64,000 nt of DNA from Botryllus schlosseri. Lineage: Eukaryota. Shown piece by piece: positions 12,001 to 61,100 of the stretch; positions within the stretch are counted from its first letter, which is position 1, and each line of letters opens with the position of its first letter. The stretch is taken from contig CM119372.1 of the NCBI GenBank assembly GCA_051294905.1, positions 5,086,001-5,150,000 on the forward strand, in the 5' to 3' direction. Made by a program: the position numbers and the translations under genes. The notes beneath the pieces were generated by a model. It was given only the letters and a program-made list of their open reading frames with translations. It made no database searches and had not been told where the DNA came from.

Positions 12001-14080
12001 CGATCAGAATTTGGCGAATAAATCATCCGTTTATATGGCCCCTTTTTCGGATCTGTATGTATGGGGATCGAGCATGATAAGGGGGCGATGAATAAAAAAA
12101 AGTGGGTCCCACTGAGTTAGACTAATTAGAATAATTAGGTCGCAATGACGGTAATCTAATTATAATTTAATTTCTGGTTTTCATGAAAATGCTACAGGAG
12201 AAATGTATAGAGCGAAACGAGCCAAGTCTGCTGTATAGATAATTTCCATTCTAATGCTTATAAGATTGAACACCGATTTGATACGAACTGAACTTCGTTT
12301 AATTTCCAAGTTTTCGCAAATTCAGTAATTCTGATCTATTTGAAAAAAACTGTAGTTATAATTCTAATTCTAATCTAATTTAGAAGAGCTGAAAATTTTC
12401 TAGCTGTCGAAGTCTGCTCAGATCACTAGCATCATCATCGCATTGATATAGTTACATATTGTTGTATTGTTGTTCGCAACAGCACGGTGGGCAAACACAG
12501 AAGCTAATGATGATTCGCTCATACGTTATTGTAACTGGCCGAATAAACACCGCGTTGCCTTGTATACAATCGAATAGCTGGTGGCCTTGAATTGCTGGTT
12601 GCTTTATTGCACCGAGATCTATCATCGCACTATTCACTGTGTTTTAGATCACTCTGACCGTCGACGGAGGGTCGTGGCTGACCGGCGCTTCTCTGGCGGG
12701 GGTGTTTTTGTTCGTGGCTTTCTTCCAAGTCGGCCCGGGTTCCATTCCTTGGTTTATCACCGCGGAGCTGTTCACTCAGGGACCGAGACCGACTGCCATC
12801 AGCATCGCGGGATTGGTGAACTGGGCCGGGAATTTCACCATTGCTCTTGCGTAAGCTGACGTACTGGTTAAAGTTAACAAGCCATTTGTGGCACAGAACT
12901 TCAAAATAACGCGAAACAATAACTTCATATTGTTAATTTATTCTCTAAAAGCTTTTCGACTGACTCTCATCAGTAGCGAACGTCAGTGATAAGGTGAATC
13001 CAATTCGAAATGTAAGAACTATTTTGTCTGCGTGACGTAATAATAACAAAAACAAACAACTAGTACACAGGCAAGATACGGTTGTAACGGTACAAAACAA
13101 ACGTTAACGAGTACATATTCGGTTATAAATAACCGAGAACACAACACACAACATTAATGAAATATTCCAAGAGTGTAGAGGCGTTCCTTCTGGCGACAGA
13201 GAATCGGCTTTCGCAGCTTTATGATCGTAGATTCCAGGACCTTTAAATGAAAAAGAGAACGGCCACGAGCAACTATAGAAAATTGACTGTCATTGTAATG
13301 ATCAGCACATTCTGGATGGGATAAGTACTATATAGTACACCAGGCCGATATTCTTCTTATTTTCCGTAACTGCCGACTTATAGCACGACCCACCTCCAGG
13401 CTTTTTGTAAGACGCCGCTTACGCGGATGAGGTGGCGAGGAGGAGCCTAGGTAAACCTCCAACACTTAGGTACCGGAATTCGGAGTCGACCTCGGTCGGA
13501 CTCGAACTCGCACCCATTGGTGTTCAAGCCACCACTGCACTATCTCGTCACCCTAGAAGTGGGTCGTGCTACAAGTTGGTGAATACCGAATCATAATAAA
13601 GAATATCGGCCTGATGCAACATGACCAATGTAATCGAAACACCACGAATATCAAACAAACAATCAGCATATAGAGCAGGCGTACCAAGCTCAATCTGGGG
13701 CGTGGGTCGGATTCAGACCTTTTCATCTCTTGCGGGCCGGACCAGTCGAATGAAAAAAATGTTTCTTCCAACTGGCTTTGCAAATCCAGAGATTTCGAGC
13801 ATGTCTTTTAGTAAATTTTGGCAATGGGAAGTGTTGTATTGAAATCCCCGTTCTAAACGACCTTATTTCCACTTTTAGATATCCGCCACTTCAGCAGGTC
13901 ATCGGGGGTTATACCTTTCTGATATTCGCCGGACTGCTGGCGCTGTTCTTCATCTACACCTACCTGAAGGTACCCGAGACGAAGGGCAGGACCATTCAGG
14001 AGATCACAGCGCGCTTCCAGAAAGTTAACGAGGCGCGCGATGACAACAAGAAGTTTTACAACCATAGCACCAAACTATAA
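1..14080 (+). CDS. SLC2A1: Facilitated sugar transporter, class I GLUT (SLC2A1-4-like); 5'-partial, 8 exons visible, ~381 aa
   Basis: Exons with GT-AG boundaries and consistent phases: 1-49, 121-263, 4305-4423, 4486-4625, 6269-6419, 10133-10271, 12648-12850, 13879-14080 (TAA). Translation has GLUT hallmarks: LMGFSKL..EML.IGRF, EISP...[73 protein letters not shown]. The symbol marks the family; it is probably co-orthologous to SLC2A1-4. Confidence 0.93.
1714..1972. mobile_element. Truncated copy of the TAGGGTTACC hAT-type MITE family
   Basis: Matches the left part of the 5318-5653 and 9501-9843 copies (ttttggaaatctgaaaagaggacact...); the right TIR is missing. Confidence 0.65.
2283..2825. mobile_element. 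hAT-type MITE (TIR TAGAGGTCGACC)
   Basis: Terminal inverted repeats, perfect 8-bp TSD ctcgcgaa, and subterminal ccgata/tatcgg repeats. Confidence 0.9.
5318..5653. mobile_element. hAT-type MITE (TIR TAGGGTTACCATA)
   Basis: TIRs tagggttaccata/tatggtaacccta; imperfect TSD ggcagtgc/cccagtgc; homologous to 9501-9843. Confidence 0.85.
7343..7753. mobile_element. hAT-type MITE (TIR TAGGGCAAGTTTTTG)
   Basis: 15-bp TIRs, perfect TSD gtagtcac, internal aaagttgca repeats. A related fragment lies at ~24480-24650. Confidence 0.9.
8660..9946. mobile_element. Non-autonomous hAT (Buster-type ends) carrying a nested MITE
   Basis: TIRs cagtgattcccaacc/ggttgggaaccactg and perfect TSD ctataatg. Confidence 0.88.
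9501..9843. mobile_element. hAT-type MITE (TIR TAGGGTTACCATA) nested in 8660-9946
   Basis: TIRs plus perfect TSD ctttataa. Confidence 0.9.
11312..11620. mobile_element. Diverged short member of the CAGAGGTGG/gtagaagta MITE family
   Basis: agtagaagtagcg and ctacttgagta motifs and the end ttactgaccacctct are shared with 56615-57861. Confidence 0.55.
11706..12114. mobile_element. hAT-type MITE (CAGTGG..CCACTG ends, gggggcga subterminal motifs)
   Basis: TIR-like ends cagtggttccca/tgggtcccactg; TSD not clean. Confidence 0.6.
13338..13550 (-). mobile_element. tRNA-derived SINE
   Basis: Near-collinear with 54805-55028; the minus strand starts with A-box (tagtgcagtgg) and B-box (gttcgagtcc) motifs. 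Confidence 0.75.
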
Positions 14081-23901: not shown

Positions 23902-26145
23902 TCCTACTTGGAAAGCTCCGTTGTATAACCTATAGTTCCTGCAGATCTGTCACATTTGTTTCATTGCTATTTCACGGACGATCTGACGAGACCGCCAAAA
24001 ATACATTTTTCTCGGTACACAGCAAGAAAATGACGCAATGCGGGAATGATTTTCCCACAAAAAAGCCAATCAGCATAGCGATAACCCCCCCCCCCCCCCC
24101 GAAAAGAAGTCGCATACCACATCCCAAACCATTGCATTGCAGAAAAACATTGCAGAAAAACTCACTCTTTGTGACTTTAACAAAATCAATAGCCTGATAA
24201 AGGGGACTCAGTGAAAATGTAATGTTCGACAGTCTCGCCTGGGCGTCCATGAAATGGGCAACTAACCCAAATTTAGATGTCAGTCTTGATAAAGCGATCT
24301 ATTTACATTCGGGCACGGTCGTGCTTGGTAGGGGTAGTTGAACTTCTTGCTTGCAAGCCATTGTGTCATAGATAACAGTGATATGCAGTTAACCCATCAC
24401 ATAGATCTTTGTTATGCAAGCTATAAATAGTTCATAGCATGTTTTTTAATCACTTATTTACGTTTCTACGCAATATTTGAGAAAAGTTACAGCAAAAATT
24501 GGCATGAAAAATGGAGAAAACTTGCAAAAAGTTGCAATATAAAATCCCTATAAACAGATTAAAACATCATAGTGCATAGATTCGAAGTATCTAGAAAGCT
24601 GCCGGAAGCTGTAACAAAAGTTGCAAAAGTTATAAAAACGTGCTCTGCTGATGACTAAGAAAATGGTCAGCAAATTTGTGACATACATAAAAGGGCAAAA
24701 GATCCCCGTTTTTTTAAGTCCATGCACAATATTTCATCAACAACTGATGATAATAATTACTTGACAAACGTTACTGAATACCAAGATATAGCGACTAGTC
24801 ACCTCGCGGCAAACTTGTTCAATATTCACACGTAAATCGACTTGTCGTTGCTGAGTGATACGGTACGCTTAATCAGCTGCCGACTATACCGCAAGTGAGA
24901 ACTAAAGTGCACCTCCCCTTTTCAAGGTACCTCATTGTTGCGAGCGCGAAACGATATTAGTAAGCAATTTATTACTTCGGCTTAAATGAACTATACCTTG
25001 ACTACGACACTCACAATGCCAAGAGACAACAGCAACATAGATGAAGAACGGTTCTCAGTACGCGAAACAGGCAGACAGTCATTATAGTCCACCCCAGTAG
25101 GCCTACATTACGACGAATGATCATGATCATCGACACAGAAAGGTAATCACAAGAAAACTGAAGTCAGTACCGATTTAACAACAAACATACAAAACTCATA
25201 CCCCTGCTATATCGGTCGTTAGAAAACTTTGGTAAATCCTTGGACTCTTGAAATTTCGTAATTGCGGTAAATGATCGTGATTTGTCTCATTCATGACAAT
25301 GCACCTGGGCGATGAAGGGGGTCGAGTTGGCACTGCTCCAGCCAGAAAGGTAAATTTTAAAGTGAGTATGTACTGTTTCATCATGTTTAAGCAAAACGAG
25401 TGACGCTTCATATTTTCTCCACTTTATACCTAAAATCGAGACCAAAAGATGAGGTCACGTGGAGAAACTGCAATGGCTAGGGAATAAACGTTTTGGAAAG
25501 GGTGAGGAAGCGATGACTAGCTACGACGAGTAGCCTCAACACCACAGAGATCGCACGTGGGCTATATTGTATTTAAAAGCATGTAGCTAAGCTCGAATAA
25601 GGAAACCTCCGAAGAAAATGGCCGCTGCCCAAACTGTTTTCCCAATTTAATCTTTAATTTGAGCCATATCATATTTGGAGCGGAGTTCCGCACTATCAGA
25701 CAGGCGGTAGTACCAGTAGGAATATAGGTCGCATCAACGGGTACATTACGGGTATTCAGTGCAACACATTTTGACGATATGCAAAAGTCCATAAGGAACA
25801 TACGCTATGAGCTTTATATGGAAAGCAGTGATGATCATATTTTTTCAAAAATAGCATCCTGCAGGACTAACTTCCTCATTATCTCGAACCGTAAACATCG
25901 ATTACTAGACAATATGCAAAGTTCGCGATTCATGAAGGCATTGAGTTTCATATAGGTGGTTGGGCGCTTGGGCAGCATGAAGAAAGAAATAATTTATCGT
26001 CGTAGCCTGTAAAGCGCACCGAGCGAGTGGTGACGAGCTCTGCACTCCGAATCCAATTTAGCGCATTAGATAGCCGACGCGTAACACTTCCTCAAGGCCA
26101 GACATAATCACCAACAATACAGGTCCAGTCGCAGACTCGACGTAT

Positions 26146-29100
26146 ATGATGTATATCGCCCTGCTACTCATTCTTTCCAATGATATCGTAAATGGCGAAG
26201 GCTTTGATGATTGCCGTACCGGTAAATATTGGCATAATGCCTACGCAGAGGTTTGGGTGTTAATCGTTAGCGTGTTGCGTACATTCAGGTGAAAATGGTT
26301 CCGTGGAAATAGTGAATGTTACTACAGCGGTAGTTATATCGATCGTAAATCAGACCAACGCGAGTGCGTATTTGACATACGAGTATGAGTGGGATATCGT
26401 AAATAAGGAAGGTGAGTGTCACATTTCAATCAGCTTGCCGTGTATCTATACATTTATTAAGGCCCTATATACAGCCATTGCAAAACGCAAACTGGCATGA
26501 ACTTACATCAAATATTTTCTACCGCTGATCTCCCGATGATAGATATGAAGACACGGTAAGGGTTCGTACGAGTGAATAATTGCCTTAATAATAATTGCCT
26601 ATAATACAGAGTGGTTGGAAAATGCCTCACTACTGTAACAACAATGGGTCACGTTTTGGAGTTCAACTCCAGAATCCCTTTTTAAGTTCGTGGAGGAGGG
26701 TTTTTTAAAAGGCTCCTCATCGCTATCCAATACTCAACTCTTACGCGGTGCCGTACAAAAGCCTAGAAAGAAAGAATGTGAGCATCTGGTCGCATGGAAG
26801 ATTATTATCAATCTTGTGTAAAATGACCATAAAGATGTCGATACACCATGCAGCCTACTATACAGCAACAACAACAACAACAATAACAACAACAACAACA
26901 ACAATAACGATAATAAGATCACCATGAACACAGCCAAAGTTCTGATTCTTTAATGATTTCCAGGCATGCAGTCACGTCGTCACGTCATTGCAAGTATGAA
27001 GTTGACCTTGTACTAATCCAGAGGCTCGTGTAGTATTTTAATTGATGAAGATTGCAAGTTTGCTACTAAATATGGTGATCAACTAGTTCTACTTGTCATT
27101 CGGCCTTCACCGTGGAGGGCAGGGGTGGGGCAAACTACGGCCCGCAACGCCGTTCTGTACGGCCCGGGAGATATATTGATGAAATGCGTACTAAAAATCG
27201 AATTCATGCAGCGACTTGATTACACTTTTATTGGTATATTTCACCATGATACTTCTAAAGGCAGTGGTTCTCAAACTGGGGGTGCGCCCCCCGTGGGGGC
27301 GTGAAACCTTCTGAAGGGGGACTAGAAGCTGAGCTCGATTGAAAAGTTTTTTCGCGCTCTGCGCGATTTCCTTACCATTCATAATTTTTGCTCTGCATTT
27401 CTATCATCCGCAGTCATAACCTTACATGCCATTAAACTATCCGTAAGGTTTGCCAGCATCCTGGTTACGTTTTGTGATATAACGATAAGGGGCGCGCGAA
27501 ATCTTTCACCACAATAAGGGGACGTGTATTGAAAAGTTTGAGAACCCCTGTTCTATGGTAAATACTTCTTGTATTTTTTTATGTTTAATTGCTGACGTGA
27601 CAGCCCGATCTCAAGGCCCATAAAGGTTTCAATTGCTAAACATCACAGAAATCGAAAACGAGATTGACATAATTCGGATGACGAGTGTGATTTCAGATTG
27701 GCCACTCCAATTTTAATTATTTCAGTGATGTGCTAATAAAAAACAAAACGATTCGCCCGTGTCTTAGGTAGATTTGTTCTCTGTATGCGTAGAATTAGGG
27801 TATTTATATTTTATCTACACATAGTAGAGGCGTGTTTGAAGCTAACATGGTTATGATGCTGTCAGCATTGTGTGTCCTGGAACAGAACCAAATGTGGAAT
27901 TGGTAAATCTATGAACAGATCGCTGCTCACAGATTTAAATTTCAACCCTGTTCTAAGAATCGGGACAACCGACTTTCATCTCTAGTTTTGAAAAATTAGT
28001 TATTGAGGTCCACCATCCTATGAAATCTTGCCACTGTTTCTGACGCTATATATATATAGTCAAATACCAATATTGCATTATGGTTTATAATCCCAATATA
28101 TATATAATCAAATAGCAATATTGAATTTTGGTTTATAATCCCAATTTTATATAGTGCGGCCCGCAAATGGATTCAGATGTTGAATGCGGCCCGCGAACTC
28201 AAAAGTTTGCCCATCCCTGGTGTAGGGGTTGACACAGCGGGCCAGTATTATGCACTATGGTTTGGCCAGAGTTTTCACGCAAGATGTCCTTCCTACCTCA
28301 ACCCGAACTATTTGTCCGCGCTTGGTGCAGGCGCTGAATAGAATTTTACTCGTTAGTAGCTTTGTTGTTGCAGTCGCCGATGGAACTTGAGCCACATCTG
28401 CATGCTTATAGAATGATGACACTAACGGAGAACTCTATATAGCTGTCATCATTCATATGTCATGATTCATCATTTAATAACAGGGATACAATTCGATGGA
28501 TTTTTGTACAAGTTGGAAGCCACAACATCTTTATACTCGGATTTGGAAGATTATGATTATGCAACGTAAGCTTGAAGATGTTGTCGTAGGGATGGTGTGA
28601 ACGTGAGGTTCACGTTCGTGTTCTGTGTGTGAACCTCGGAAAATTTGAGGTTCGCGTTCACAACAGAACCTTGGTAGGTTCTGCACTGTGAACCTTTTTC
28701 ATATATTGCTATTTTCACTTCAAATTTATGGACTTTCAACTGCGGGCCACTCTATGCATGGGGCTGGCAGCATAAACATTCAACACTAAATGAGCATTGA
28801 GCATGCCCTTGACAATCTCAAAAATTTACTTGTATTGATACAAAAGTTTGCTCGAAATATCCAGCCATCCGTTTGTGCATGTTTAGTGTCTGTGATGTGA
28901 GCTTGACCCGCAATCACATGACATCAAGAGCGAAATACACTGTATTTTGTCAGCAAATGATCCTTATTCAACCAATCAATGAGATTGATATCGTCTTCTG
29001 TTGTAAAAATCTAGCAGGCGTACGGGGTCAATCTTGACTACATTGTATACTGTATCATAAAAACCAAATTCGTGCGACTGGGGTGTTGGCTATACTGCTG

Positions 29101-32100
29101 TATAACTTGTTAATCGGTAGAAAGTATAGAAACCCATTTTGCACTCTGCTCAATATTCGTGGCAATACTCAGACGCCGAATACATTGTCCGATCAGGTCG
29201 AAATTGTTGGCAAAGCGACGCAAGATAGCCTACTGACTTTATGGGATTATTTTATCATTTGATTGCCCAGTTGATACATTTGGCGACCTTTCAAACGTCA
29301 ATATGTACCTAAGTACTGAGCTATTATGTGGCTCCGAGTCGTCGCTCGGTATCAGTATACAGTAGATTAATATCGGCAATCACCTAATTGAAATATGGGG
29401 TTTAAATTAGCAATATGACGTCACGTGACGTCATGAGGTTCACGTTCGTGTTCACACAGAACCTTTCAAAAAGGTTCACGTTCACACGAACCTGAACCTT
29501 TCAGAGGTTCACACCATCCCTATGTTGTCGTCTGTCATTCGTTTATATCTTGGCAGAAATATGAATTTTTCTACGCAGTGACGTAAGAACTTGCAATGTC
29601 ACAAGCACAAACGAACTTTGGGCGACTTCAGAAAATGGCACCTCCGTACGCTGCCAAATGCCATGTACACGATACTTTCCGGAATTCCCGTCAAAATGCC
29701 ACGAGTCAGACTCCGTGTGTACTTTGAGAAACGAGAGAGGGTTCCGTCCTTTACATAAGGTGAGATTTCTGGTTTCTGACAATTAGAAGCACCGGTGGTG
29801 ATGTGGAACGATCAGGCACCCTGCCCGAAGAAATATCTTATTTTATCATATCGGTCTGGCCTAGGATAGCGAGAATCTAGACCAGTGGTCCGTAAACAGG
29901 GCTTACACGAAGTCCAGGGGTACGCTGATTCAGTCTAAGCGGTTCAGCGGTGGTCAAGACACACCCCCAACACATATACTAGTAGTGATGACACGCCCGT
30001 TTGGCCATCATTGACTGCAGGTCGCAATCAGTATGGTCGAATCGTTGCAATTCGCATCACGCTATTGCGGGGCACTCTTTCAAGGTGAAGCCTTGCATTT
30101 CCGAACTGGTAGCAGGAAGATTTGTACCGCGCTGCATTGATTTGCAATTACTTTTCTTTGTGATAATCATGTTTTAATGATTTTATTCTTTTAACATGGT
30201 TATTGATTCACAATTCATTTTGTTAGATGATGCAAGACTACTGCACGTCGTTTCGATGCAGTCCTATTTTTTCATTCAATTTTGTGGTGTTTTGAATTGA
30301 TAACAATGTCAGCAGTATTATCTAGCAAAGCATTAGATATGTAATGTGGTGGATATATATTTTTGTTATTCAACGTAACGGTTCGCCACCTCAGTAAAGG
30401 TTGAGAAGTATTTCATACCTGACTCTTTGACAAAATGCAAATGACTTGACGGGAGATCATTGCAACAATCTCTCGATTGAGAATCTATAGAGCACGCCGG
30501 AAGTATTAGGTATCGAGCTGCCGCACAGGCTTACTTTTTCCCGAAGGAACATCTATTATCCAGTAACGTCACTTATACTGAACGCTCTACACTACGACAA
30601 GCAATCCAGTAGAGGTGAGAGCGTGGTCGCATAGAATGTGAGCGATAAAATCGAACAGTTATTGGTCTCATGGGTCCAGGCAAATAATAACCAAGGTATT
30701 GTTTAAGGGCCAAAGAACAGTTCTGGTGGCTGCAGATTTTGGTGAAAAGTATGTTTTTAAATTGTATGCATATCAACACTGGGCGATTATAAGCGAATAT
30801 AAACACGATGAAATCACGATTTTCTGCAAGGATGAGTTGATTACTAAAAGAGGATTCGCGGAAACTGAAGCAAGCAAGCACTGCCGCAATGTGTCAACAG
30901 CGAGCAGTAAGTCGATGAGTGCCGCTACGAGTTTACGAGAAACTACAAGATATTGTTTTCAGATCCTTCTTTGATTTCTGGTCCTGTGGCTAATTTTTAC
31001 AGCGACAGTGTCCGTTACGATATGTCTTCAAATACAGCTGAAGCTATATTTCGCTGGAATGAGCCATATGACATGTCCCTAAGTTCCCCACCTATAAAGG
31101 AATATGCGGTTTCTGTCTCGCAGGGCCATTGCGAGATGTCATTCATCGTGAGTCTTTCAATATCATCACCTTCTTATTGCTACTTATAAATTGTAGCATA
31201 TTCGGTTTTTGTCCATGCCGTTACTTCTATGTCATAAGGAAGTTCGTATATTCAGTGACTACTTGGCCTGCCTATTGCCCAAACCTGTTGCATTCTACTC
31301 TTACCCAGGGTTGTGTTTAAAACAAAAAATCAATTTAAAACAAACATGTTTAAAACAAGGCCATCATTTAAATCATGTTTTACTGTTTTTCTTCAAGCCA
31401 CGACGTCACGAATATTCAATTGCGACATAATAGTGGATTGATATTCACAATTTAAAATATAAGGTCAATATAGCTCCTTTGACGAAATAGGCTTCCAACC
31501 CCTGTAATATACGGACCAAAAATATCTTTAACCAGGACTACATCGTCTTGCAGCATTTCACTGTCGGTGGTCATCATCATTGGAACATTCAGTCTGTACC
31601 ATTGATCTATATCTACCTACTATAGCTGTTGAACCGACTATTTCGAGGGTTCCAACTATCGCATATCGTATACGCGGCTATATCGGGTGGTAATCGCCGT
31701 CCGTAGGCTCACACAACATGTGTTTGGAAAGAAATTACACAATTATGACATAATTATAAAACATAAAAAATGTTTTTTATTTTTAAAAAGGCCTTTGTTT
31801 AAAACACTGTTTAAAATATGTTTTAAACAAAGTGTTTTAAACAACCATTTGTTTTAAATGCAACCCTACCTATACCCAACACCATAAGCGTACTTAAAAT
31901 TATTGTTGCGCAATCAAATACTGATTTGGAAAAACCGCACATAAAATTATGCTTAGTTATCAAAATCTGCAATTGAGTTTTCAAAATCACGCACCTGAAT
32001 CATTAGCTCATACACATAGAGAAGAAGCCGATCTGACCAGTGACAAGAACTTGGTGTTCTTCACTCTATGTCACCAGTCTTCTTTATGTGAACTTCGTCA

Positions 32101-35100
32101 GTGAGAACTAGCAGTAATAAATATTCCGTAATATAGTCTTGAAACCGTAATTATCGTTGATTCAAGTATTACTCTTATTGGAACGAGGCACATAATTTCA
32201 GTCGTTGAAAAAACCCTCTCTCAATACTCGACCTGACTCATTAGGCCCTGCAATTAATACTCTATAGGGATTCGAGTATACGCGAATCATTTTGCCACAT
32301 ACTTGTAATTATAGCAACTGTGTCATTCAGATTAGATTGTGCATTCCAAGCATTATTTTCCGAATATTTATGGGTGCCGTCTAGGATGCCGCTGGCGGAG
32401 CGAACGACTCATACTTTAACGTAACGATCTCGGAAATACAAATTGGGCGTCCAAATACCATATTCGTAACGCCGACCAACCCTGAGGGTCAAAGGGGCGT
32501 GAAGTATGCTCATGAATTCACTATACCAGGTTTCAGTTATTCTTTTATTATTGATTTACTCACTTCATTCTGTGAAAGCCTCACATGATTTCGAACTAAC
32601 GCGGTAAGAAGTCCATCCCCACACCTGGAAATATAATGCAATACCGGTAAACTCAAACCCCTGCGAACGATAATGTTGTCGTTCCGTATCTACAGAGATA
32701 AACGCATGTCGAGATCCATATCGGTATTGCCATTGGTTCGCCGATTGCGTGGATCACGCGGGTGATGACAAAACAGTGGCAGCATGTAGGTGCAAACCGG
32801 GGTATGATGGCAATGGCGTCAATTCCTCATTCAGTACGGGCGACGGATGTACAGATTTCGACGCCTGCATAGCCCTTGAGGTAGCCGTATGCGATGATAA
32901 TGCCAAATGTGTGGACAATCCTCCCCCGTCAAAGACAGCAATGTGTGTTTGCGGGTATGATGGTGCGTCTGCCACATGTAGATAAGAACATAAGTGATCA
33001 TATACGTTCATTATAGGTCAGGATTTTTTGGTGATGGCAAAAGAAAAGGATCTGGTTGTAGGAAAATTTCGTCGATTGTCCTTCCGGCGTTGGGTGTACC
33101 TATGGGTCTACTTTCACTGTTTACTATTTACTGCTGTGTGAAAAGACTGCGACACATAAAGACCGGGTATGGTATAAGTGTGAACTTTTAAGCAGCTGGA
33201 AAGTACAGTAATCCCTGTAACCAAGACTTACATATATTGTGACAAGTTAAGAATTACTAATGCTGAAATATTTGAAGACGAAAAAAGTTTTCAAAATTCT
33301 TTGCATCGACGGGTACGAGGTACACTTGCCCCCTGGAATATGACGTACAAAATCAGAGCAATACTGCTGGAGTCTTTGGAGCTACGTACGAGCTTCGTCG
33401 AGATGCGATTGAACGAAAAGGTATTCATGAATAGCTTGTGTGATATGCGTGATATAAAGACTCTTCGTTTATTGCAGGAGTTTTAGGTCGCGGAAATTTC
33501 GGAGTCGTGTACAACGGTGCACTAAAGACAGAACGCGGGACCGTACCAGTTGCAATCAAAACTATGGCAGGTCGGCCGCACTTTCTTCATTTGCAGTATA
33601 CGTACACTACGTAAAGCATCGCTAACAACCAATTTATAAGTCCTTACATCAAATTATATTACGAACACAATGAGAAAACCCATAATCTGATTGGCAGAAT
33701 AATTAGGCTCGTGTGGACACCCACACTCGCATTCACTGAAAAGGTGCAAACCTTGATTTTAGTCGCCGAGATCTCGTATATATGTATTATTAGGTATGAA
33801 ATCGCGCCATACGAAATATGAGAACAGTTTCCTAATATGATAGGTCAGTAGATGTCATGCAAGAGCCATTTTATTGTCTCGTTTATAGGTCTGCAGCTGC
33901 ACTCTGCACTCTGCATGCTTGATTGTAGCTGCAACTATGGAGTATGACATTATAGATAGGCTAACCTCCGTAGGTTAGCTATATATAATGACATACTCTG
34001 TACTGCAACTGTCTCAATCTCGCCGAAGAAATTGTAGACCACATTCGAATCGTGGACTCAATACTGCTGAACTAATCAATTTAGCAACCTAATGACTGTC
34101 ACTGAGTTTCGGGGCTGCAAATTACATGACTATACCCTCTTCATTAGGCAGCTAATAGTTTTGCCAGGTTATACATAATTACAATACTCATAAATTGGTG
34201 ATTTACCGCCTCGGGATGTAAAAGTATATGGTCTAAAATAGAAATTCAGTGTTGAAAGCAGTGATTGCGTCATTGATGACTGGCAAGATGCCGTTTTAAT
34301 TAGTAGCGGAACGACTGAAACTTGCTACGCCAAAAAGTTTCACTGCCGCGTTACAGAATAAATCAACGTCAAACAGGATTCGGATCGAATGCGAAAATGC
34401 GACAGAGCAGCTTAATCCTATCTCATTTGCGTATGCTTACATTGTGGTGAGAAACGTGACGTATAGGTGTTATTTTAAGGAGACACAAACTTGATCTATC
34501 GATACCACCCGAAGATGACACTGGAACTATAGCCTCTTTTAACCTGCCATACGTTTGCAATCATTGAACATGAGATTGGTATGTGAGTTGCTGATATAAA
34601 AATTCATTGTGTGTTATGAAAATGCAATCAGAAGGACCGTGTCATCGTTCCCTAATTATGTGACCTCGAGTTTCTTGTCGCTGCAGACCAAAATTGTTTT
34701 CGGAATGTGGAATGATGAATATTGTATGTCAATTTGATAAAGTTGTCGGACGGTGTGGATGCGTTTATTAACATGCTGCCGACGTGATTTTCCCATAATG
34801 TTGATGATTTCCAAAGAAGTTCTCGGTTCCTAGCAAGTTTCCTTTTTTCTGACTCAAGATTAAGGAGGTTCGCATGCCAAACACTGACGCAAACTTATAC
34901 TTATAGGTCTCGGCATCCATGTAGCCAAACGTACCCTTCATCCGAGCGTACTCATCAATAACAACAACAGTAGTAACACATCTGGTTCACGTATGTATAT
35001 ACACGAGCAGATAATAGCGCGCACGGCTACGTAAAGGGAATCAGGGATTAATATCAAATAGTATATAGTTCGTCGATACGTTGACGGACTCGTTAATCGT

Positions 35101-37295
35101 ACGTCAGCCCGAATAAGACATCCGTTAGTTTACGTCATAGTAACGCTGCATAGAGCCGCTACGACGCAATGATAGTCGCGGCCAGACCATAAGAACAGAT
35201 TGAAGGAAACGAATGTGGAAACGCAGGGATCGATATTGTGCACAGCCGTAAAGCGGTTAGATAATATTTGCATTCATGTGTGCTTACTTTAGAACCGCGT
35301 AACCGCGAGACCGAAATGGAATTTTTGGCAGAGATCGCCCTGATCATAAGTATAGGACAACACGAAAGTGTACTGGGTCTCATCGGATGCTGTACTTCTG
35401 GTCCTAATCCTCCATTTCTCGTCACGCAGTATATGAAGTACGGTGATTTACTTCACTTCCTGTGGGACTGTCGAGAGGTTGGTACTGCAGACATTGTTTT
35501 CGCGCGCAAAAAATCAAATTTTTCAACAATTGCCCATTGAAATTAAGGAAAGCAACAGAGCTCGCCAACAAATTTACATATTCACGGAAGGGAATATTTA
35601 CTATATCGCGATGCAAGTTGCGAGCGGTCTTGAGTACGTTACTGGATTGAGGATCATTCACGGCGACATCGCAGCTAGAAACATCCTCGTAGATCAGGTG
35701 ACTTGATTCACGCGATCTCCCAACTATATGCCTACACTATACAGCGGGGTTTCTCAAACTTTTTTAAACTACTCAACCTTACTTCCTGAAAATAATGTTG
35801 CCTTCATAATAAGTAGATCATACTGGCTCTGTTAGCACTAATCAGAGATCTACAGTAGGCTAGGTTGTAACTTTCATTACTGCGGCAATTGAGTAGTGCG
35901 GAGCATGGACCGGAGCCGGATTGGATATCCGGCCGGAATTTTTCAGTTTTGGCCGGTGCCGGATCGGAGCTGAATCAGTCATTTTTCTGATACGGCCGGA
36001 TCCGGATCAGTACATTTTCTTGACACGGCTAGAATCTTTATTGATGAGCATGACTTTTGTAACTGAATAACTATCAACCAACCAATCACACGCAAGTGAC
36101 CGCCAAGCCAGTGCGGAAATAAACGTGCCATATTGATAAATTCACGGTACCACCGTACCGTGTAGGGCGGAGCATGGGCCAGAGCCGGATTGGATATCCG
36201 GCCGGGCTTGTTCAGTTTCAGCCAGAGCCGCATCAGTACTTTTCCTGATACGGCCGGAGCCTGATCGGAGTCGGACCAGAGAATTTGTCGATCCGCTCCG
36301 CACTACAATAGAGACACATATATTCACTACAGTTAATGTGTATGAGGCGAAGAACGTTACACGGCAATGTAAAAGTATGGTGGTTTAAGCCTTAATTAAC
36401 ACTGCAATTGGTAAGCTTAAACATTATGTGAAAGCATGGTGGTTAAAGACTCAATAAACTCTGCATTTATTCGGAAAGCTTAAATGTTTTTCTCGAATTT
36501 CAGCCAACCGGCAAAGTCGCTGCTGCTGAAAATTTTCACAGCACCAGTAAAATTAACGTACTAGCGCACCCCCGAAAGCTCTCCCACATACCCAGCTTTA
36601 GAAACACTGCTATACAGGAATAAGAAGACTATTACAAATCTCTCATGGTGCAGGGACTGAAGTGCAAGATATCTGACTTTGGATTGGCGAATGACGTATA
36701 CAGGTACGGGATGGTAAAAAACGCCAGAGAGAAGAAAGTGCCAATGAGATGGACTAGCCCTGAACGGATGCAAGCCGGCATGGTACCCATCACATGGCGC
36801 AGCGACGTGTATGACACAAACATAACTGATGATGCAATGAATCCATAACGCAGAATTCTTGGTTATTTTAGATGGTCTTTTGGTATATTATTATACGAGA
36901 TGACCACGCTTGGAGCGAATCCGTTTTCTGAAATACCGATTCATAACTTGTTTGAAAAGCTTTCGTCTGGATACAGAATGGAGAGACCATCGTCCTGCAG
37001 TCCGTTCTTGTGAGTAAAATGCATATATTACTCCAATGAACAGTGTCAGACAAATACAATGCTATGAGGCATGGTCCTATTGAAGCATCTGATGACCTCA
37101 AGTCCCTTTAATAGGTCTTGGACACTAGGTCGTTAATCGACGGTTTGCTTCCACAGGTACGACATAATGACAAAATGCTGGGATTGGGTCCCCTCGAAAA
37201 GACCAACATTCAAAGAACTCAGGCAAATTATGCAAAATGCTAAAACGTACACAGGAGAGAATTACGAAGACATCATTTCGCCAGTTGTTACTTGA
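26146..37295 (+). CDS. STYK1: Receptor tyrosine kinase of STYK1/NOK type with signal peptide, FN3-like region(s), 2 EGF-like domains, TM helix and kinase; 16 exons, ~804 aa
   Basis: Exons: 26146-26221 (MMYIALLLILSNDIVNG signal peptide), 26289-26411, 28484-28565, 29579-29759, 30696-30906, 30963-31147, 32385-32529, 32696-32954 (EGF x2), 33017-33166 (TM IVLPALGVPMGLLSLFTIYCCV-KRLR), 33278-33420, 33478-33570 (LGRGNFG..VAIK), 35293-35477, 35548-35697 (HGDIAARN), 36654-36808 (DFG..WTSPER), 36872-37009 (DVWSFGILLYEM), 37157-37295 (CW...RPTF, TGA). Lengths sum to 2415 nt in one open frame. Kinase, EGF and TM exons are high confidence; N-terminal exons are moderate. Confidence 0.85.
26863..26915. repeat. 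(AAC)n microsatellite
   Basis: caacaacaacaacaacaataacaacaacaac; a shorter one lies at ~50559-50579. Confidence 0.85.
27120..28219. mobile_element. Non-autonomous hAT with a nested element at ~27262-27550
   Basis: Ends caggggtggggcaaact/agtttgcccatccctg; TSD gtggaggg/gtgtaggg (7/8). Inner element cagtggttctcaaact..agtttgagaacccctg. Confidence 0.8.
28587..29522. mobile_element. hAT-type MITE (TIR TAGGGATGGTGTGAAC), full length
   Basis: 16-bp TIRs, perfect TSD tgttgtcg, and gttcac/gtgaac subterminal repeats. Confidence 0.92.
31306..31868. mobile_element. MITE with tttaaaaca repeats (cagggttg..caacccta)
   Basis: Inverted ends agggttgtgtttaaaac/gttttaaatgcaaccct; TSD degenerate. Confidence 0.65.
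35745..36609. mobile_element. Non-autonomous hAT with nested MITE 35894-36305 (TIR TAGTGCGGAGC)
   Basis: Outer TSD ctatacag is perfect; inner TSD caattgag/caatagag; internal ccgga repeats. Confidence 0.82.
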
Positions 37296-37959
37296 GCACC
37301 TGACGAGCAGAATGGGTGCATTTTGATATGTACGCGAATATGCGATATGTTCGGGCAAATTTTAACTTGGCACATTTTAGTGCACGATAGGACATGTCAC
37401 ACTACGTTGAAAATTGAAACTTAACAAAATGGAACCTTCAATACCATGTTTTTAAACCGAAGGTAGTTTCACGCATGACTGAGTTTGTATCATTCGAGTT
37501 TCAAATGGACAGAACTTTATCATGCGATATCGCAAGGAACTCATGGCATCGCCGTTTTTGGTGACGAAGACTTATCTACATGCTATATGTTTGAAACCTT
37601 CATTGCTTGTAAACGCGCTACGTGGTTTAGTGGCGGAAAGTGCATGTATAAGGGCCGGATTATAGCACTTATGTCAGCGAACCATGAATAAATCTCGAAA
37701 ATTGAAGCCAATCGAAAGACACGAATGTAATTTTCCGATGCTAATTACCGATGAAATGTATTATACACTGTGGGGGTTGGTCCGCCGTTCCATTAAACAC
37801 CAGGGGTTACCGCAGTGGTTCCCAACCTTTTTCCACCCACGTACCATTTCAAGGTTTTATGCAGTGCTCGAGTACCACCTACAAAAATTACGCGCGCCGA
37901 AGACAGTCCAAAAATGTTTTCACCATGTTGAGCTACCGAAAGTGTTATTTTCTTGATCT

Positions 37960-39075
37960 TGTTTGAACAATAACTCATACGACGAGGTTGCAATATGAAA
38001 TCAGTATCTTATCAGTAGAATAACTTAAAGGGAGCGACACGATCCAGAGTACAGATAAACGAAAGACCAGCAGACAACAGAACACAGGGTATAAATACGA
38101 AGCACGACACACGAGGAAATAATGATTGACGTTAATTACTAATCCTCGACAAATAAGAGACAACGATACCAACGTAAAATGCACGAACATAACAGTCCTC
38201 CCCAGTAAGTTAGGAGTACAAGGCAATTTACGTTGGCCGATAGGAATCAGTTTGTTTTCTAATTCTAAGCGGATAACGTTTGCCCGACGTTCGAGCAGGA
38301 CTAGCTGCAGGACGTTGTGCCCTATGCCTGCTGACCAATGGTTGCTCATGCTCAGCTTGTGATTGCTGAGGCTGAGCAAATTCCTGTGTGACTATATCCC
38401 TAGCAATGGAAATCAAGCGTGGCTGGAGTTGGTTTTTATGCCTTATCCAATACCCATGATCTGTTTTGACAATGTACAACACGCGTCCCAGTATTTCCGT
38501 CACAACGCCAGCAACCTGTTTTGGTCCGCGTCGGTAACTGCGAGCGTAAACCGACAAACCAATCTCGAAATGAGTGATTGATTGTCTAGGAGTAACGGGT
38601 TTCGAATTTTCGATATATCGTAAGGCGAGCTCAAACGTAACAAATTGCGCGGCTGCCGACCATGCAAAATCTCAGCAGGCGTTTTCCAGTCTATGCCCGG
38701 GTGCGGTGCACATCGGTACGTAGCGAGAAGTGTTTGGAGCGCGAAGTTGAAATCTTTTCCCTCGTCGCAATTTTTTATCATTCTAGCTTTTAAAGTCTGG
38801 ACGAAACGCTCCGCTTTCCCGTTCGAGGCAGGGTGAAAACTGAAAAGACGGTGATACGATATGGCTGATTGCCAAATTCGAAAAAGACGTATCGAATTCA
38901 TTCGATGTGAATTGCGGTCCATCATCCGTGACAATTGTTACGGGCAAGCCTTCGATAGAAAAGACTTCCCTCAAAGCGTTGACTACACACAAGGTTGTGG
39001 TAGATCCGACATTCATCACTTTAACGAAAGGATATTTCGAATGCGCATCGACGATGACAAGAAACATTCTGAGCT
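37960..39075 (-). pseudogene. Ty3/Gypsy retrotransposon 3' fragment: frameshifted integrase, PPT and 3' LTR
   Basis: Three frameshifted segments: FLVIVDAHSKYP..VTDDGPQFTS, HPASNGKAERFVQTLK..TPAEILHGR, and VYAR..G.V...LG...Y.V....RHKNQL. The purine tract ggggaggac (38203-38195) is followed by a TG..CA LTR-like segment 38194-37960. Confidence 0.85.
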
Positions 39076-39145
39076 GAGCTACCGAAAGCAGCGAAACATA
39101 AAATAAACTGCCCATTTTAAGGCGCAGTATATGATTTCTGTAGTG

Positions 39146-40869
39146 CAGGGGTGGGCAATTATTTTTCCCCGCGGGCCAAATGAGAAGCAGAAAATATGTT
39201 GGCGGGCCGAGTCAGAAATTTTAGCTGTATTCTAAAGCGTATGGATTTATTTCTAAATTGAAAGCAATGATTTACACATACACTAAATGGTGCTCAGTGG
39301 ATGTGTTGATATTGGGGAATGAGAAAGAGACGGTTTATTACCAAAAAAAATATTTGTTTTCCGTCATATTTTGAAACAATGTTACGCATGATACTTCTTG
39401 ACTGTCTTTAAACCCATATCCGCGTTTTTCTATTAATACATTAAAATGTATTTGGGATGGCCGAAACAGCCCGTCGTCAGCCCCCCCCCCCAAACGTTGG
39501 TCTCCCCCCATAGAGTTATAATCCAAACTCCTGGGGCTTTGCCCCCAGACCAGACCCCATCGGCCGGGATGCACACTTCTCAGCGAGATTTCTAGTATAC
39601 ACTATACAGGTGGCAACGTTTTATGCCCTAATAGCGCGAAGCGCTAAATTTTTCCATGATTCATGATTCAATCGGTCAATAATATTGGTAATTGCATGTA
39701 TATTGCTATATTTTTTCTAACCTGTCTCAGCCCACGTACTCAGTTTTACTGCTAGAGCTGAGTGAGGAGCTGTCTTGGAAATATTCGGGAGGGCCCGTTG
39801 GTATAATTACTTCGTTACATGTTATTATTTCGTGACCTCCCATCTGCTACGTGAAAGTTATTGAAATCACCAAAGCATACTAAAGTAAAGGACGCACACG
39901 GTTCCCAATTGGTATTTCTTCACTGGAAAATATTGCCTATGGTTTTCGGTCAACATAAGGGCAGTCCTTTTGGCCGAGGTTTTCTCTCTGTCGAGCTTTT
40001 TTCCCTTTACTTAGTTAATTTGATTAGCAGTTAAAATTGCAGTGCCTTATCGGAATCCGTGTTGGCCTAAACTTCATATATCTTGGCGTGTCGTGGCTCG
40101 GTAATGGCTGACACAGAAATGCCCAATTTTATAATCCATTGATCTCTAAATCGCGGCTATAGCGCGAGAAAAATTTGAAAGAAGTTGCATAAATTAAAAA
40201 ATAAGATACTCTATAATTTATGTTCATTCACGAAATAATTTTGGACTCCCTTCGGGCTCGCCCCCCAATTGGGGGTTTGGGGTGCGGCAGATACGTTTCA
40301 GGGGATACTATAAAGCTTATTGTCTTGGTAGCTGGTTTCCGAGAAGTGTGCAGCTTGCCGAAATGGCCTTGTTGTTGAGCCAAGCTTGCAGTTATTCTGA
40401 AATTCGCCGCCCCTTGAGCGAGTGTATGTCTTCCTGTTTTTGTCATAGAACCGACTTAAATTATACTCCTATAACTATGATATACTCATTACTCATAGAA
40501 ATCACGGGCACTGATTAACTTGTTTTACGAATTATGGATTTGGAGACGCATCACGAAACAATTTGAAACACAGACCGTGTAAGTAATGCGTAATGTGACA
40601 ATGGTAAAAATGGCAAGAAGGTTTGGCCATTCCGTGTGACTTTAATTGTAGCGGCATAATTTGCTACATTGACTTTACTTTGAATCTAAATTACGCATGT
40701 GAGGTATTGCGTAATCGCGGCATGTTAATGAACAGGCTTGATAGTAAACGAATTTCCGGCTCCGTTTATTCTTCCTATGGTTTATACATCCACGCAACAA
40801 CATTAAAATGTAGGTTTTATATTTTCAATTTCAAGCAACCTTTCGCGGGCCGCACTTTGCCCAGGCCTG
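39146..40869. mobile_element. Nested non-autonomous hAT (caggggtgggcaa..ttgcccaggcctg)
   Basis: TIRs, gcgggcc subterminal motifs and perfect TSD ctgtagtg. Confidence 0.87.
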
Positions 40870-45353: not shown

Positions 45354-45361
45354 TATATAAG
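45354..45361 (+). promoter_or_regulatory. TATA box of the peptide precursor gene
   Basis: TATATAAG at 45354-45361, an Inr-like TTCATATT ~30 nt downstream (45383-45390), and the ATG ~45 nt after that. Confidence 0.6.
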
Positions 45362-45427: not shown

Positions 45428-45808
45428 ATGAAGATCAAAATGCAGATACCGATTATATGTTTATTAGTCCTATCATTGTGTGCAGTCACGCCATGCTCAA
45501 GTGCTCCACTCAGGGGATATGATAGTGACTTAGACGAGAAAATTGCTTCCGACAGCGCATACGACAACTCCAACGACGAATCTTTAAAGTTAGATGCACA
45601 AGCTATGTTTCATGACGAAGGAGGCACTAGGACAATCAAATCAAATCGACCGATCCACGATGATACGAACGGCTCAGTGCTACGAAGTAGACGTGACATT
45701 TCAGACATAGCATTCCACGGAGCCCGTAAACGACGACATCACAAGCGTTCCGCCAAGTACCTTCTCGCTCAAATTTTGAAGAGCATTACTGGAAAAAAGC
45801 TCGGATAG
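45428..45808 (+). CDS. Secreted peptide-hormone precursor (126 aa) with a C-terminal PTH/PACAP-like (class B1 GPCR ligand-like) amidated peptide
   Basis: ATG at 45428; hydrophobic signal peptide (IPIICLLVLSLCAVTPCSS); acidic pro-region; furin site RSRR; then DISDIAFHGARKRRHHKRSAKYLLAQILKSIT followed by the G-KK amidation/cleavage signal. TATATAAG lies upstream and ATTAAA at 46063. Confidence 0.85.
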   Translation: MKIKMQIPIICLLVLSLCAVTPCSSAPLRGYDSDLDEKIASDSAYDNSNDESLKLDAQAMFHDEGGTRTIKSNRPIHDDTNGSVLRSRRDISDIAFHGARKRRHHKRSAKYLLAQILKSITGKKLG

Positions 45809-58100: not shown

Positions 58101-61100
58101 ATTTCATACAACATTCATGTCAGGTGGCGGGTCATATGACGAGACAGTATCATCCTTTGTGATACCATGAATAAATATTCTGAAGATATAAATCACTTTC
58201 AAAAGTGGTACAATGCCGCTTTCTTTAATTTCGAGATGCTGTGAGCTGCAGGTTAAAATACCTAGGCCTATAGTTCGAAACATATTGAGGAAAATAACCC
58301 GAGCTAGCGTCGCGGAACTGTTCAACGGAGAATTAGCGATCTAAAGGTACGCGCAATTCATTTTACATGAATTTTAATAAACCACTACATTCATGGAAAC
58401 AAGTTGCAATCATTGTCGGATGTCGGTGTATATTTCGCGCCCAGCGCGATGAAAAATCTCGAGTTTTGACAGATTATGTCGAATGTTAATTTTCAATGAG
58501 AACTCAGGGACATATAGAACTGTTGTTCTTATATAATCATATTTCCTTACTTCACCCTCTACTGCGCAGCCGTTTTTCGTCATCGACCCCATGCCGCCCC
58601 ACTGAGCCCAGCGCTCCCCATATCGCCCCTGAGCGTTTCCGCCCCTTCAAAATCTAAATCGCCCGTCGGGGGCGACGAGGTGAAGAAGCACTGGTGTAGG
58701 ACATGTAAGGACCAGTCCATTTATTTTCAGTTCATCACATATCCCGGATGGGACAAGAACAAGTTTCAAATCAATGATATCGCTCTGGTAGAGTTAGATA
58801 CACCGGTAACTTTCAATGACTATACAAGGCCTGTGTGTTTACCAAATGGAGAAAAAGTCAAAACTGGAACAACGTGTTTCGCTGCTGGTTGGGGGTTAAC
58901 CGGTACGACAACATTGTTTCAAATGCGATCAAATTATCGTACTACATTACTATATCATTTTTAGATCAAGACGGAGTGCAGCCCTCTACGATTCTGCAGC
59001 ATGTGGCTTTGCCAATTGTCGATCGGGATAAGTGCGAAGAGAGTTACAAAAACAATAGGTTGAAAGTGAATAAGACCATCATGACGTGCGCGGGATACGA
59101 CGAAGGTGGCAGAGACGCTTGCAGAGGTATGCTGTCAACACAAGCGCATCACACTGGAACTCTCCGACAAAAACCATTCACTGATTTGCAGGAGATTCTG
59201 GCGGCCCCTTAGTATGCCAACGTTGTGACAGCTGCAGCTGGTTCATCGCAGGCGTCGTCTCGTTTGGAAGCGGGTGCGCGCAGGCCGGGAAATACGGAGT
59301 GTACACTGATGTAATTTACTATGAAGATTGGATTGCGACCGAAACCGGAATTCACTTATCGAAGGACAACACATGTTCAGGACCACGTAAGTTTAATGGT
59401 TGTTAACTATATGTAGCAGCCTGTGTGAAGCTAAAGCTTGCATTCGCAGAATTTACAAATTGGGGTGAGTGGTCCCAATGCCCAATGACCTGCGGAACCA
59501 AGGGTATTAAGAGGAGAATTAGGCATTGTCTCGACAAGGGTCGAGATAGCACTGCGTGCGTTGGATTATTGAAGGATCAAAAGCAATGTCCCGAAAATCC
59601 ATGTCCAAGTATGGTATTATATGTAACGGCGAGACGGCATCATCATTATTGTCACAACGTGATATTCAGGATTCAGCTCTTGGACCGATTGGACGCCCTG
59701 CTCAAAGAAGTGTGGCTCGGGATTTCAAAGTAGAGTAAGAGAATGTGTTCACGGAGAGCTTGGAGTCAAGGAGTGCCCAGTATCAGGATCTTCGCAGCGT
59801 AGAGTAAGTTGATAGCAGCACTCGACTTGATGCAATGCTTTGCCGCAACGCTCACAGAACAATTATCGCCGGGATTTTGTTCAGAGATGCAATACAATAC
59901 CATGTGCAAAATGGGGAAATTGGAACATCTGGGACCAGTGCTCGCAAACTTGTGATGGCGGAAAGAGGAAGCGATCGCGTAGCTGCATGAATACGTCACC
60001 AGATCAGCAATGCGTTGGCAAGTCCGAAGAGGAGGAATCCTGCAATACTGCAGATTGTCCACGTAAGGCTTCCGTATATTTTCCTAACATAAGGATATAT
60101 AAATACGGTTTTATTGGGTAACAGATTGGTCGAAGTGGTCAAATGAGGGTCCATGCTCAAAAACATGCGGTGGGGGCATGCAACGTCAGGGTAGGAGTTG
60201 CATTGGTGGTGACTCGTGCACAGGAGCTGGTCAACGCAATCAGGTAGTGATTTTGTTATGTCATATGGTAAAGTATAGCTGGATGTTATTGTAAACGTTC
60301 CACAGCAATGCAACCAGCAGCCATGCCCGGTGTTTGGTAAATGGGGTGGTTGGGGGCCATGCGATGTCACATGCGCCGGCGGAACCCAGCAACGAACCAG
60401 AGACTGTGAAAATGGCAAGCTTGGCGAAGTTGGATGCGCAAAAGGCGACGAATCGGAAGCTAGGGTAAGTTGTTTAATTGAAGGAAAATTCACCCGAAGT
60501 TTGCAGCTAACTTCTTATCTTATGCTAGGCATGCAACACGGAAAAATGTCCTAGATTTACAAATTGGGGCCCATGGGGAAAATGTTCAAAAACGTGCGGC
60601 TCGGGTAGCCAAGAATCAACAAGAACATGCCAGCACGGTAAAGTTGGTCAAGCTGGGTGCATAGGAACTGTGTCCAGAACAAGAACTTGCTCCACTAACG
60701 AATGCATTGGTATGTATGTTTTAAAAATACTGTCCTAAGAACATTAATTCAATGCTCATTTCAACCATAGGTAAATACAGCCCTTGGACCCAGTGGTCAC
60801 CGTGCTCCAACACTTGCGGTAGTGGTAAGAGGACAAGAAGTCGTACATGTGAAGGCGGTACCCGGTGCGTTGGAAAAAGCAGCCAGCAGGGAGACTGTAA
60901 TGACAGAAAATGCCCAGGTATAATAATACTTACGTTTTACTTCCACGTCCAATAATATACACGACGCGCCGACGTCGATATGGTCGTTTTTGCACTCATC
61001 CAACTCCTTGTTCACCTAAGTATTCAGCGATTGGACTCCATGGGAGCCGTGTACGAAAACATGCGGAGGCGGTTCAAAAACTCGTTCCAGAACGTGTCTG

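Follow-up and report, generated by a model that had tools for sequence, protein, structure and literature searches.

Human STYK1 (NOK) is one of eight receptor pseudokinases, and according to the available text of PMC13259870 it has an ectodomain of 22 amino acids (aa), no reported ligand, and no solved structure. The Styk1 subfamily has been rooted with non-vertebrate deuterostome genes, and a secondary loss of its ectodomain has been proposed from intron data; the accessible text of that article does not state what the lost ectodomain was (PMC4898815). The placement of STYK1 is also treated in PMC8662651, and PMC3342872 cites D'Aniello et al. Here, we describe a gene of the ascidian Botryllus schlosseri, located at positions 26146–37295 (forward strand) of a stretch of 64,000 nucleotides (nt), hereafter the window (GenBank assembly GCA_051294905.1, contig CM119372.1, positions 5,086,001–5,150,000). 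The window lies on this contig, referred to below as C2, of a 495.5-Mb genome. Comparison of predicted kinase sequences strongly supports the gene as a member of a deuterostome-wide STYK1/NOK clade. It is not a STYK1 as vertebrates define it, because it has neither of the two defining features, a very short ectodomain and a pseudokinase domain.

The gene model comprises 16 exons with a joined coding sequence of 2403 nt, encoding 800 aa, with a single terminal stop codon and GT-AG borders at all 15 introns. Four in-frame splice alternatives at the boundary of exons 7 and 8 give products of 794–802 aa. The protein has the layout of a receptor tyrosine kinase (RTK): a signal peptide, an ectodomain of ~415 aa (21 Cys and ten N-glycosylation sequons), one transmembrane (TM) helix, and a tyrosine-kinase domain that starts at ~aa 510. 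Within the ectodomain, two FN3 domains, the first of which holds a Cys-rich insert, are joined by a helical linker with a Cys pair and followed by two EGF repeats. The signal peptide (aa 1–11 are hydrophobic and signal-peptide-like) and the TM helix (~aa 436–455, with a modest hydropathy of 1.9) were called from hydropathy and alignment only. An exon-by-exon Pfam search gave an EGF match on exon 8 that stayed below the curated cut-off (E 1e-4) and the tyrosine-kinase model on all six kinase exons; exons 2–7 gave no match in this search. The gene and its receptor-kinase architecture are real. A sequence-only reading of the locus had described this order of parts, with ~400 aa of FN3-like, Cys-rich, and EGF-like extracellular sequence, and the 800-aa model bears it out; all the motifs it had cited occur in the spliced translation.

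Relationships of the kinase were examined with a profile built from two STYK1 proteins and five exons of the window gene, which retrieved 150 representatives. Tree rows were picked from 246 kinase domains, most multi-kinase and distant ones being omitted; species names were checked for 30 proteins only, and all other group labels reflect tree position. Each of four trees (102, 58, 41, and 49 rows) recovered a single clade uniting vertebrate STYK1/Styk1-like kinases with those of ascidians, amphioxus, and ambulacrarians, with a support of 0.987 in FastTree and of 99/98, 99/95 (site-mixture model), and 100/99 in IQ-TREE. A topology that placed the ascidian genes with FGFR, RET-like, Cad96Ca-like, and Torso-like rows was rejected by the approximately unbiased test (p-AU 0.0027). 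Within the clade, ascidian and vertebrate STYK1 kinases were sisters in the three careful trees (93/96, 98/96, and 93/87). A search with exon 15 returned four matches, all of them mammalian STYK1-type proteins. The earlier proposal that this kinase groups with STYK1 and not with RET or FGFR therefore holds, with TIE and VEGFR lying outside the sampling. Its identification as STYK1/NOK-like stands as far as clade membership goes, but the gene is a co-orthologue in an ascidian family of several paralogues rather than a lone gene. Many clade members carry FGFR-like, VEGFR3, or egl-15 labels in the databases (P0029, P0049, P0026, P0128, and others) yet group with STYK1.

The window kinase retains its Gly-rich loop, Lys542, Glu559, His-Gly-Asp647, Asn652, DFG, and two activation-loop tyrosines. 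These retained catalytic residues are an addition beyond the first reading of the locus. The set of Lys, Glu, Asp, and DFG was complete in 10/10 ascidian, 16/17 amphioxus-group, and 23/23 ambulacrarian-group kinases, that is, in 49/50 invertebrate members versus 0/16 vertebrate ones, and the two activation-loop tyrosines were invariant in all ten ascidian members. The catalytic loop reads HGD and lacks the Arg of HRD. This form also occurs beyond the STYK1 clade, in insect PVR sequences, and insect PVR proteins are working receptors. As judged from these residues, the window kinase is probably catalytically active. Vertebrate STYK1/Styk1-like proteins (P0001, P0004, P0011, P0015, P0019, and P0022) share with it the kinase clade, a single TM helix, the HGD-type loop, and motifs in the hinge and P+1 region. 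They differ in having an ectodomain of 22–61 aa and in lacking DFG and the alphaC Glu, compared with the long ectodomain and full catalytic set of the window gene. Vertebrate STYK1 most likely lost both ectodomain and catalysis.

The fold of the ectodomain was read from an AlphaFold model of the Styela orthologue (13-row alignment), not from the window protein itself. This model shows two beta-sandwiches and a helical-hairpin linker, with a mean predicted local distance difference test (pLDDT) score of 72 that falls below 50 in the insert; the full-length model (pLDDT 62, predicted TM-score 0.36) was not used for the fold search. The leading matches in sequence and structure searches against the PDB were all FN3 domains, none of them outstanding (tied Z scores of 8–10), and the leading structural matches were FN3 tandems of the adhesion type. 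Pfam matches to Ig or cadherin domains, which an ectodomain of the FGFR, RET, or Cad96Ca type would have, were absent from eight ascidian relatives (E 1e-5), and the fold is FN3. TIE and VEGFR/PDGFR/PVR also differ in architecture, since the window protein lacks an Ig domain and its FN3 domains precede the EGF repeats.

The adhesion-type matches bear on the idea that the protein binds no soluble ligand itself and serves as a co-receptor or in adhesion, its partner being a second RTK or a matrix protein, in the way proposed for vertebrate STYK1 and EGFR. An association of STYK1 with EGFR and a possible co-receptor activation are indeed discussed in the available text of PMC13259870, and the missing HRD Arg would fit a receptor of this kind. 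Set against this are the catalytic set kept in nearly all invertebrate members, the invariant activation-loop tyrosines, and the generic nature of the FN3 matches; we regard a co-receptor role as quite unlikely.

We next compared ectodomains across the clade. After eight of 40 non-ascidian invertebrate ectodomains were dropped because of their length or a missing TM call, the remaining 32 fell into one FN3 family (14), a mainly Ig-type group (9), a Sushi/LRR-type group (6), and three singletons. The 14-member FN3 family spans amphioxus, starfish, sea cucumber, and acorn worm. Comparing the ascidian profile with the amphioxus/ambulacrarian one gave a probability of 96.9 (E 1.7e-10) over 193 columns that cover both domains and the linker, whereas only ascidian members showed an EGF pair and a Cys-rich insert. 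The FN3 pair is therefore probably ancestral for deuterostomes by parsimony, being common to amphioxus and ambulacrarian members, and the EGF pair and insert were probably added in ascidians. The sequence-only reading had suggested a receptor of ancestral type that may bind a ligand; of its ectodomain, the FN3 pair is probably the ancestral part. Among 19 vertebrate clade members, 15 had a TM call, with ectodomains of 22–61 aa, and the other four were either fragmentary or without a TM call. In 14 of the 15 short ectodomains, two Cys are retained at a spacing of 6–8 residues, which indicates that the vertebrate stub is under constraint. We considered this stub as a relic of the longer ectodomain, but profile comparison found no match to the invertebrate ectodomains. 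In some relatives (P0018, P0023, and P0026), basic runs in the low-complexity insert of the first FN3 domain suggest a furin-type cleavage site, which the window protein lacks.

The whole architecture recurs in other ascidians, as the earlier reading had proposed to search for. Styela clava XP_039268090 is nearest to the window protein; the same species has XP_039255907, XP_039267599, XP_039266233, and XP_077967343, and further relatives are Phallusia CAB3246203 and Ciona XP_026696171/XP_078485918, the Ciona member being labelled 'STYK1-like' by NCBI. Their kinases are 43–64% identical to that of the window. All are database predictions, most of which are uncharacterised or bear wrong names (VEGFR3, wall-associated kinase-like). 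Outside ascidians, the same kinase clade includes amphioxus and ambulacrarian receptors (for example, CAH1252685, XP_038071438, XP_071795171, and XP_077869997), mostly labelled FGFR-like. The homologous FN3-linker-FN3 unit, present in 14 of the 32, comes there with neither EGF pair nor Cys-rich insert, and many amphioxus copies have other ectodomains. The amphioxus NOK genes are said to have been reported as expanded by D'Aniello and colleagues in 2008, who may already have described ectodomains. A homologue search with exon 12 gave no matches, and a profile search of ascidian proteins returned one family member among 18 matches; these sparse results are no evidence of rarity, because the word index is insensitive.

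In the Botryllus genome itself, three further full receptors were found (C15:12.13 Mb, C6:7.84 Mb, and C2:8.69 Mb), giving at least four full copies. The four paralogues pair one-to-one with four Styela genes (96/82, 96/84, 94/93, and 100/97), so the paralogue set appears old and stable. We also detected predicted genes with the same ectodomain and no kinase. Two of these, L011 and L014, lie on the minus strand of C8 (~741–748 kb and 768–771 kb) and encode FN3-FN3-EGF, with no kinase match anywhere in the following 13–40 kb; in one, the EGF part is followed by a TM exon and one or more further exons, and the other appears to run into a stop after the EGF part. A third, L017 (C15, ~12.23 Mb, minus strand), consists of predicted ectodomain exons, and the 15 kb around them gave no kinase match. 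Such kinase-less genes would be candidate decoys.

A family of this kind could instead consist of immune-type recognition receptors, whose ectodomains bind a surface ligand (microbial patterns or self/non-self) and whose non-RD kinases signal defence. Non-RD kinases have been linked to pattern recognition, and several features point the same way: the ectodomains of amphioxus members are a shuffled assortment of Ig, CUB, LRR, Sushi, and F5/8 types, Styela holds several family copies on one contig, and kinase-less copies exist. Mouse STYK1, moreover, is mainly expressed in natural killer cells according to the available text of PMC11481722. However, immune families turn over by fast birth and death, unlike these four paralogues, each of which pairs with its own Styela gene; only four full copies, a lower bound, were found in this genome; and the FN3 pair comes with no lectin, LRR, or V-type Ig domain. 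We therefore consider an immune role unlikely. Stable paralogues together with decoy-like copies are a better fit to an endogenous ligand than to pattern recognition.

A weak hint at the kind of ligand comes from Torso. Five RTK families have double-FN3 ectodomains, and Trunk-Torso is the only cystine-knot pair among them (PMC11087794, in its available text); neither STYK nor NOK is mentioned in the main text of that article. Torso (PMC11087794, PMC6660194; P0146, P0153) resembles the window protein in being a tandem-FN3 RTK with a Cys-pair linker of the same spacing between its FN3 domains. It differs in its HRD kinase and separate clade. Deuterostome Torso sequences are HRD kinases as given in part of the supplement of PMC6660194, and because amphioxus and echinoderms keep their own HRD-type Torso, the window gene is not Torso. 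Indeed, a topology joining the ascidian genes with Torso was rejected (p-AU 9e-6), and Torso has an HRD loop. Placing the whole STYK1 clade as sister of Torso was not rejected (p-AU 0.15).

Comparisons of ectodomain profiles gave a faint signal. The amphioxus/ambulacrarian profile matched three Torso ectodomains weakly (probability 33, score 35.5) at the Cys-pair linker, against a maximum of 22.0 in 40 column shuffles and 26.3 for an unrelated FN3 control; the ascidian profile did not match the same three. Neither Torso nor IL-17 receptors appear among the matches listed from three fold searches or among 60 of the 99 PDB sequence matches. The Pfam Torso FN3 model scored weakly on 3/3 Torso-like proteins and on 0/10 amphioxus/ambulacrarian FN3-type members, and Pfam Ig_ILCR1 had faint scores in 2/10 of the latter (E 0.006 and 0.06). 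Atlas searches yielded generic kinase clusters only for exon 12 and generic FN3 clusters for an amphioxus ectodomain, where the cluster at rank 11 has a Torso FN3 label in 24% of its members. Where IL-17 receptors have a cytoplasmic SEFIR domain, the tail of the window protein is a kinase. Genome-wide, 24 IL-17 domain matches (15 on C2) compare with nine SEFIR matches. The genome also contains several intronless tyrosine-kinase open reading frames (ORFs), one of them beside IL-17 genes on C8. It is possible, though on the unlikely side, that STYK1 derives from a Torso/IL-17R-like receptor of cystine-knot cytokines: the FN3 pair and linker would then share their origin with the part of Torso that binds its ligand, and the ascidian proteins would be tyrosine-kinase receptors for IL-17- or Trunk-like proteins, with the kinase-less copies as decoys. 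A cystine-knot ligand of the Torso/IL-17 type is weakly hinted at by these matches.

The exons of the window gene, all on the forward strand, divide the protein as follows. Exon 1 (26146–26221) encodes the signal peptide (aa 1–26) from the first in-frame ATG past an upstream stop, and no RNA joint is among those listed for it. The first strands of FN3 domain A lie on exon 2 (26289–26411), their fold taken from the Styela orthologue model, and a further strand with the start of the insert on exon 3 (28484–28565), as placed by the gene model and ectodomain alignment. Exon 4 (29579–29759) holds the Cys-rich insert, with five Cys, found in ascidian members only and modelled with low confidence. 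The end of FN3-A and the Cys-pair helical linker follow on exon 5 (30708–30906, covered by an RNA contig), and FN3 domain B is split between exon 6 (30963–31147, RNA contig and joint to exon 7) and exon 7 (32385–32529, RNA joint; the donor is at 32529 or 32535 among the splice alternatives). Both EGF-like repeats begin on exon 8 (32696–32954; Pfam EGF_3/EGF below cut-off, RNA contig from 32819), and exon 9 (33017–33166, RNA joints on both sides) completes the second and adds the TM helix, seen in hydropathy, and basic stop-transfer residues.

The cytoplasmic part opens with the juxtamembrane region on exon 10 (33278–33420, RNA contig). Exon 11 (33478–33570) carries the Gly-rich loop and beta3 Lys542, with RNA joints, and exon 12 (35293–35477) alphaC Glu559 and the hinge, with an RNA joint. 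On exon 13 (35548–35697), where a few raw RNA reads fall, are a short insert and the catalytic loop with Asp647 and Asn652, and on exon 14 (36654–36808) the intact DFG (665–667) and the activation loop with Tyr673 and Tyr675. Both Pfam kinase matches and the alignment of catalytic residues mark exons 11–14. The kinase C-lobe is on exon 15 (36872–37009), also a Pfam kinase match, and the coding part of exon 16 (37157–37295), placed by an RNA contig and the gene model, holds the kinase end and a tail with Tyr786 and Tyr791. The 3' untranslated region (37296–37841) extends at least to 37841 on a spliced contig shared with kinase exons.

Transcript evidence came from four sequencing runs mapped over 24500–38500, of which X2 consists of contigs, presumed to be RNA, and the other three of raw RNA reads. 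An X2 contig of 1838 nt contains the end of exon 8, exons 9 and 10, and the last exon with the untranslated region; it shows GT-AG joints 8-9, 9-10, 10-11, and 11-12, and its remaining 723 nt equal the summed length of exons 11–15. A second X2 contig, of 723 nt, covers exons 5 and 6 and reaches exon 7 across a joint, and we infer that the two are connected through exon 8. For exons 1–4, no joint is among those listed (33 further joints are unlisted) and bin depth is 0.5–4. No single transcript record in the four runs and the mapped interval runs from signal peptide to kinase. The raw reads gave almost no exon coverage (five reads at 35631 in X19) and fell mostly on intronic repeats. Repeated elements occupy introns 2, 3, 6, and 13 (27260–28230, 28587–29522, 31325–31868, and 35890–36290), where they attract RNA reads of other copies that map with loose ends.

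These data leave a small opening for exons 1–4 or 1–7 forming a separate secreted gene and the kinase having a shorter ectodomain. The lack of one record covering the transcript, the missing listed joints of exons 1–4, and the fact that this family does yield kinase-less ectodomain genes would fit a split. Yet one open frame crosses all 16 exons, the exon order is repeated in three paralogues of the same genome, and blastp aligns the spliced ectodomain over its whole length with full-length annotated proteins of Styela and Phallusia (5/154 proteins, E 3e-61 to 2e-25). After removal of the EGF repeats it still matches 5/154 retrieved proteins (E 3e-36 to 6e-11), all of them ascidian full-length receptors. 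A split gene is thus very improbable, and we accept exons 1–4 because of this homology and the bin depth; the length of the contig record also speaks for the inferred joins. Of the joins proposed earlier over 26146–33166, the contig joints confirm those from EGF to TM and kinase and those of exons 5–7, while exons 1–4 rely on homology and depth only. In the contig, the EGF exon is spliced to those of the TM helix and kinase, and a failure of splicing that would have told against a single receptor was not seen.

Several points weigh against the window protein being a working receptor of the STYK1 clade. The tree rows were retrieved with a profile itself seeded by STYK1 and the window exons, and the trees include no identified TIE, VEGFR, PDGFR, or PVR members and no agnathan rows. 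Vertebrate STYK1 is long-branched, and the window kinase is 34–38% identical to vertebrate STYK1 versus 47% to an amphioxus member. Placing vertebrate STYK1 outside all invertebrate members was not rejected (p-AU 0.39); this arrangement was best in a quick 32-row run (support 33), and the FastTree node did not resolve it. Only 14 of the 32 non-ascidian invertebrate ectodomains are FN3-type, the others being Ig, CUB, Sushi, LRR, or F5/8. The tail lacks the Grb2-type Tyr-Val-Asn motif that ends three Styela relatives and has another tyrosine motif there. Finally, expression is near zero in three of the four mapped runs.

The tree-related points would suit an invertebrate family of HGD-type RTKs that is not co-orthologous to STYK1, with the long-branched vertebrate genes placed there by artefact or as an ancient paralogue. 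The vertebrate stem branch measures 0.63–1.3 changes per column in three trees, and the vertebrate stub matches none of these ectodomains. The clade nevertheless holds under the site-mixture model, branching follows the species tree in the three careful runs, NCBI names the Ciona member STYK1-like, and the rooting of the Styk1 subfamily with non-vertebrate deuterostome genes, in the available text of PMC4898815, agrees with it. We find this alternative decidedly improbable.

Overall, we consider it reasonably likely that the window protein is a ligand-activated, probably active RTK of the STYK1/NOK clade. Its architecture, clade, catalytic residues, and tandem-FN3 fold and homology come from the analyses above, and the dynamic steps are drawn from general knowledge of RTKs. 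A secreted protein ligand would bind the FN3 pair, which the EGF stalk would hold off the membrane. The receptor would then dimerise, and trans-phosphorylation of Tyr673, Tyr675, and a tail tyrosine would recruit SH2 adaptors and lead to Ras-MAPK or PI3K signalling, with kinase-less genes of the same ectodomain perhaps acting as decoys. Historically, the ancestral receptor may have been FN3-FN3-TM-kinase. Ascidians would have gained the EGF repeats and the insert, some amphioxus copies would have swapped ectodomains, and the jawed-vertebrate line would have reduced STYK1 to a stub pseudokinase through the loss of both ectodomain and catalysis.

The window contains other features around the gene. 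Just downstream, integrase-core (rve) matches in two frames at 38228–39211 (minus strand) mark a decayed retroelement. A single-exon ORF of ~126 aa at 45428–45808 (plus strand) resembles the precursor of a peptide hormone: it has a signal peptide and paired basic cleavage sites, and a TATA-like box lies near 45356. It has no convincing Pfam match and may be PTH-like. Exons matching a trypsin-like protease and a thrombospondin type 1 repeat lie at 58518–62616 (plus strand), and the last exon of a sugar-transporter gene at 13754–14080 (plus strand).

Invertebrate relatives of STYK1 and a secondary loss of its ectodomain are already in print; what is added here is the tandem-FN3 identity, the retained catalytic residues, and the paralogue set. 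The literature covered, which excludes the supplements of PMC4898815, D'Aniello et al. 2008, and the Torso-PTTH structure paper, contains no description of an FN3 ectodomain, an ascidian family, or a kept catalytic set, and no paper there connects STYK1 with Torso. The window gene and its relatives point to the tandem-FN3 unit as what vertebrate STYK1 lost. They also offer an apparently active kinase of the STYK1 type, as judged by its residues, for structural and substrate work. Human STYK1 is linked to cancer. With a receptor in tractable animals in which the ligand can be sought, both the origin and the ligand of an orphan human pseudokinase become testable.

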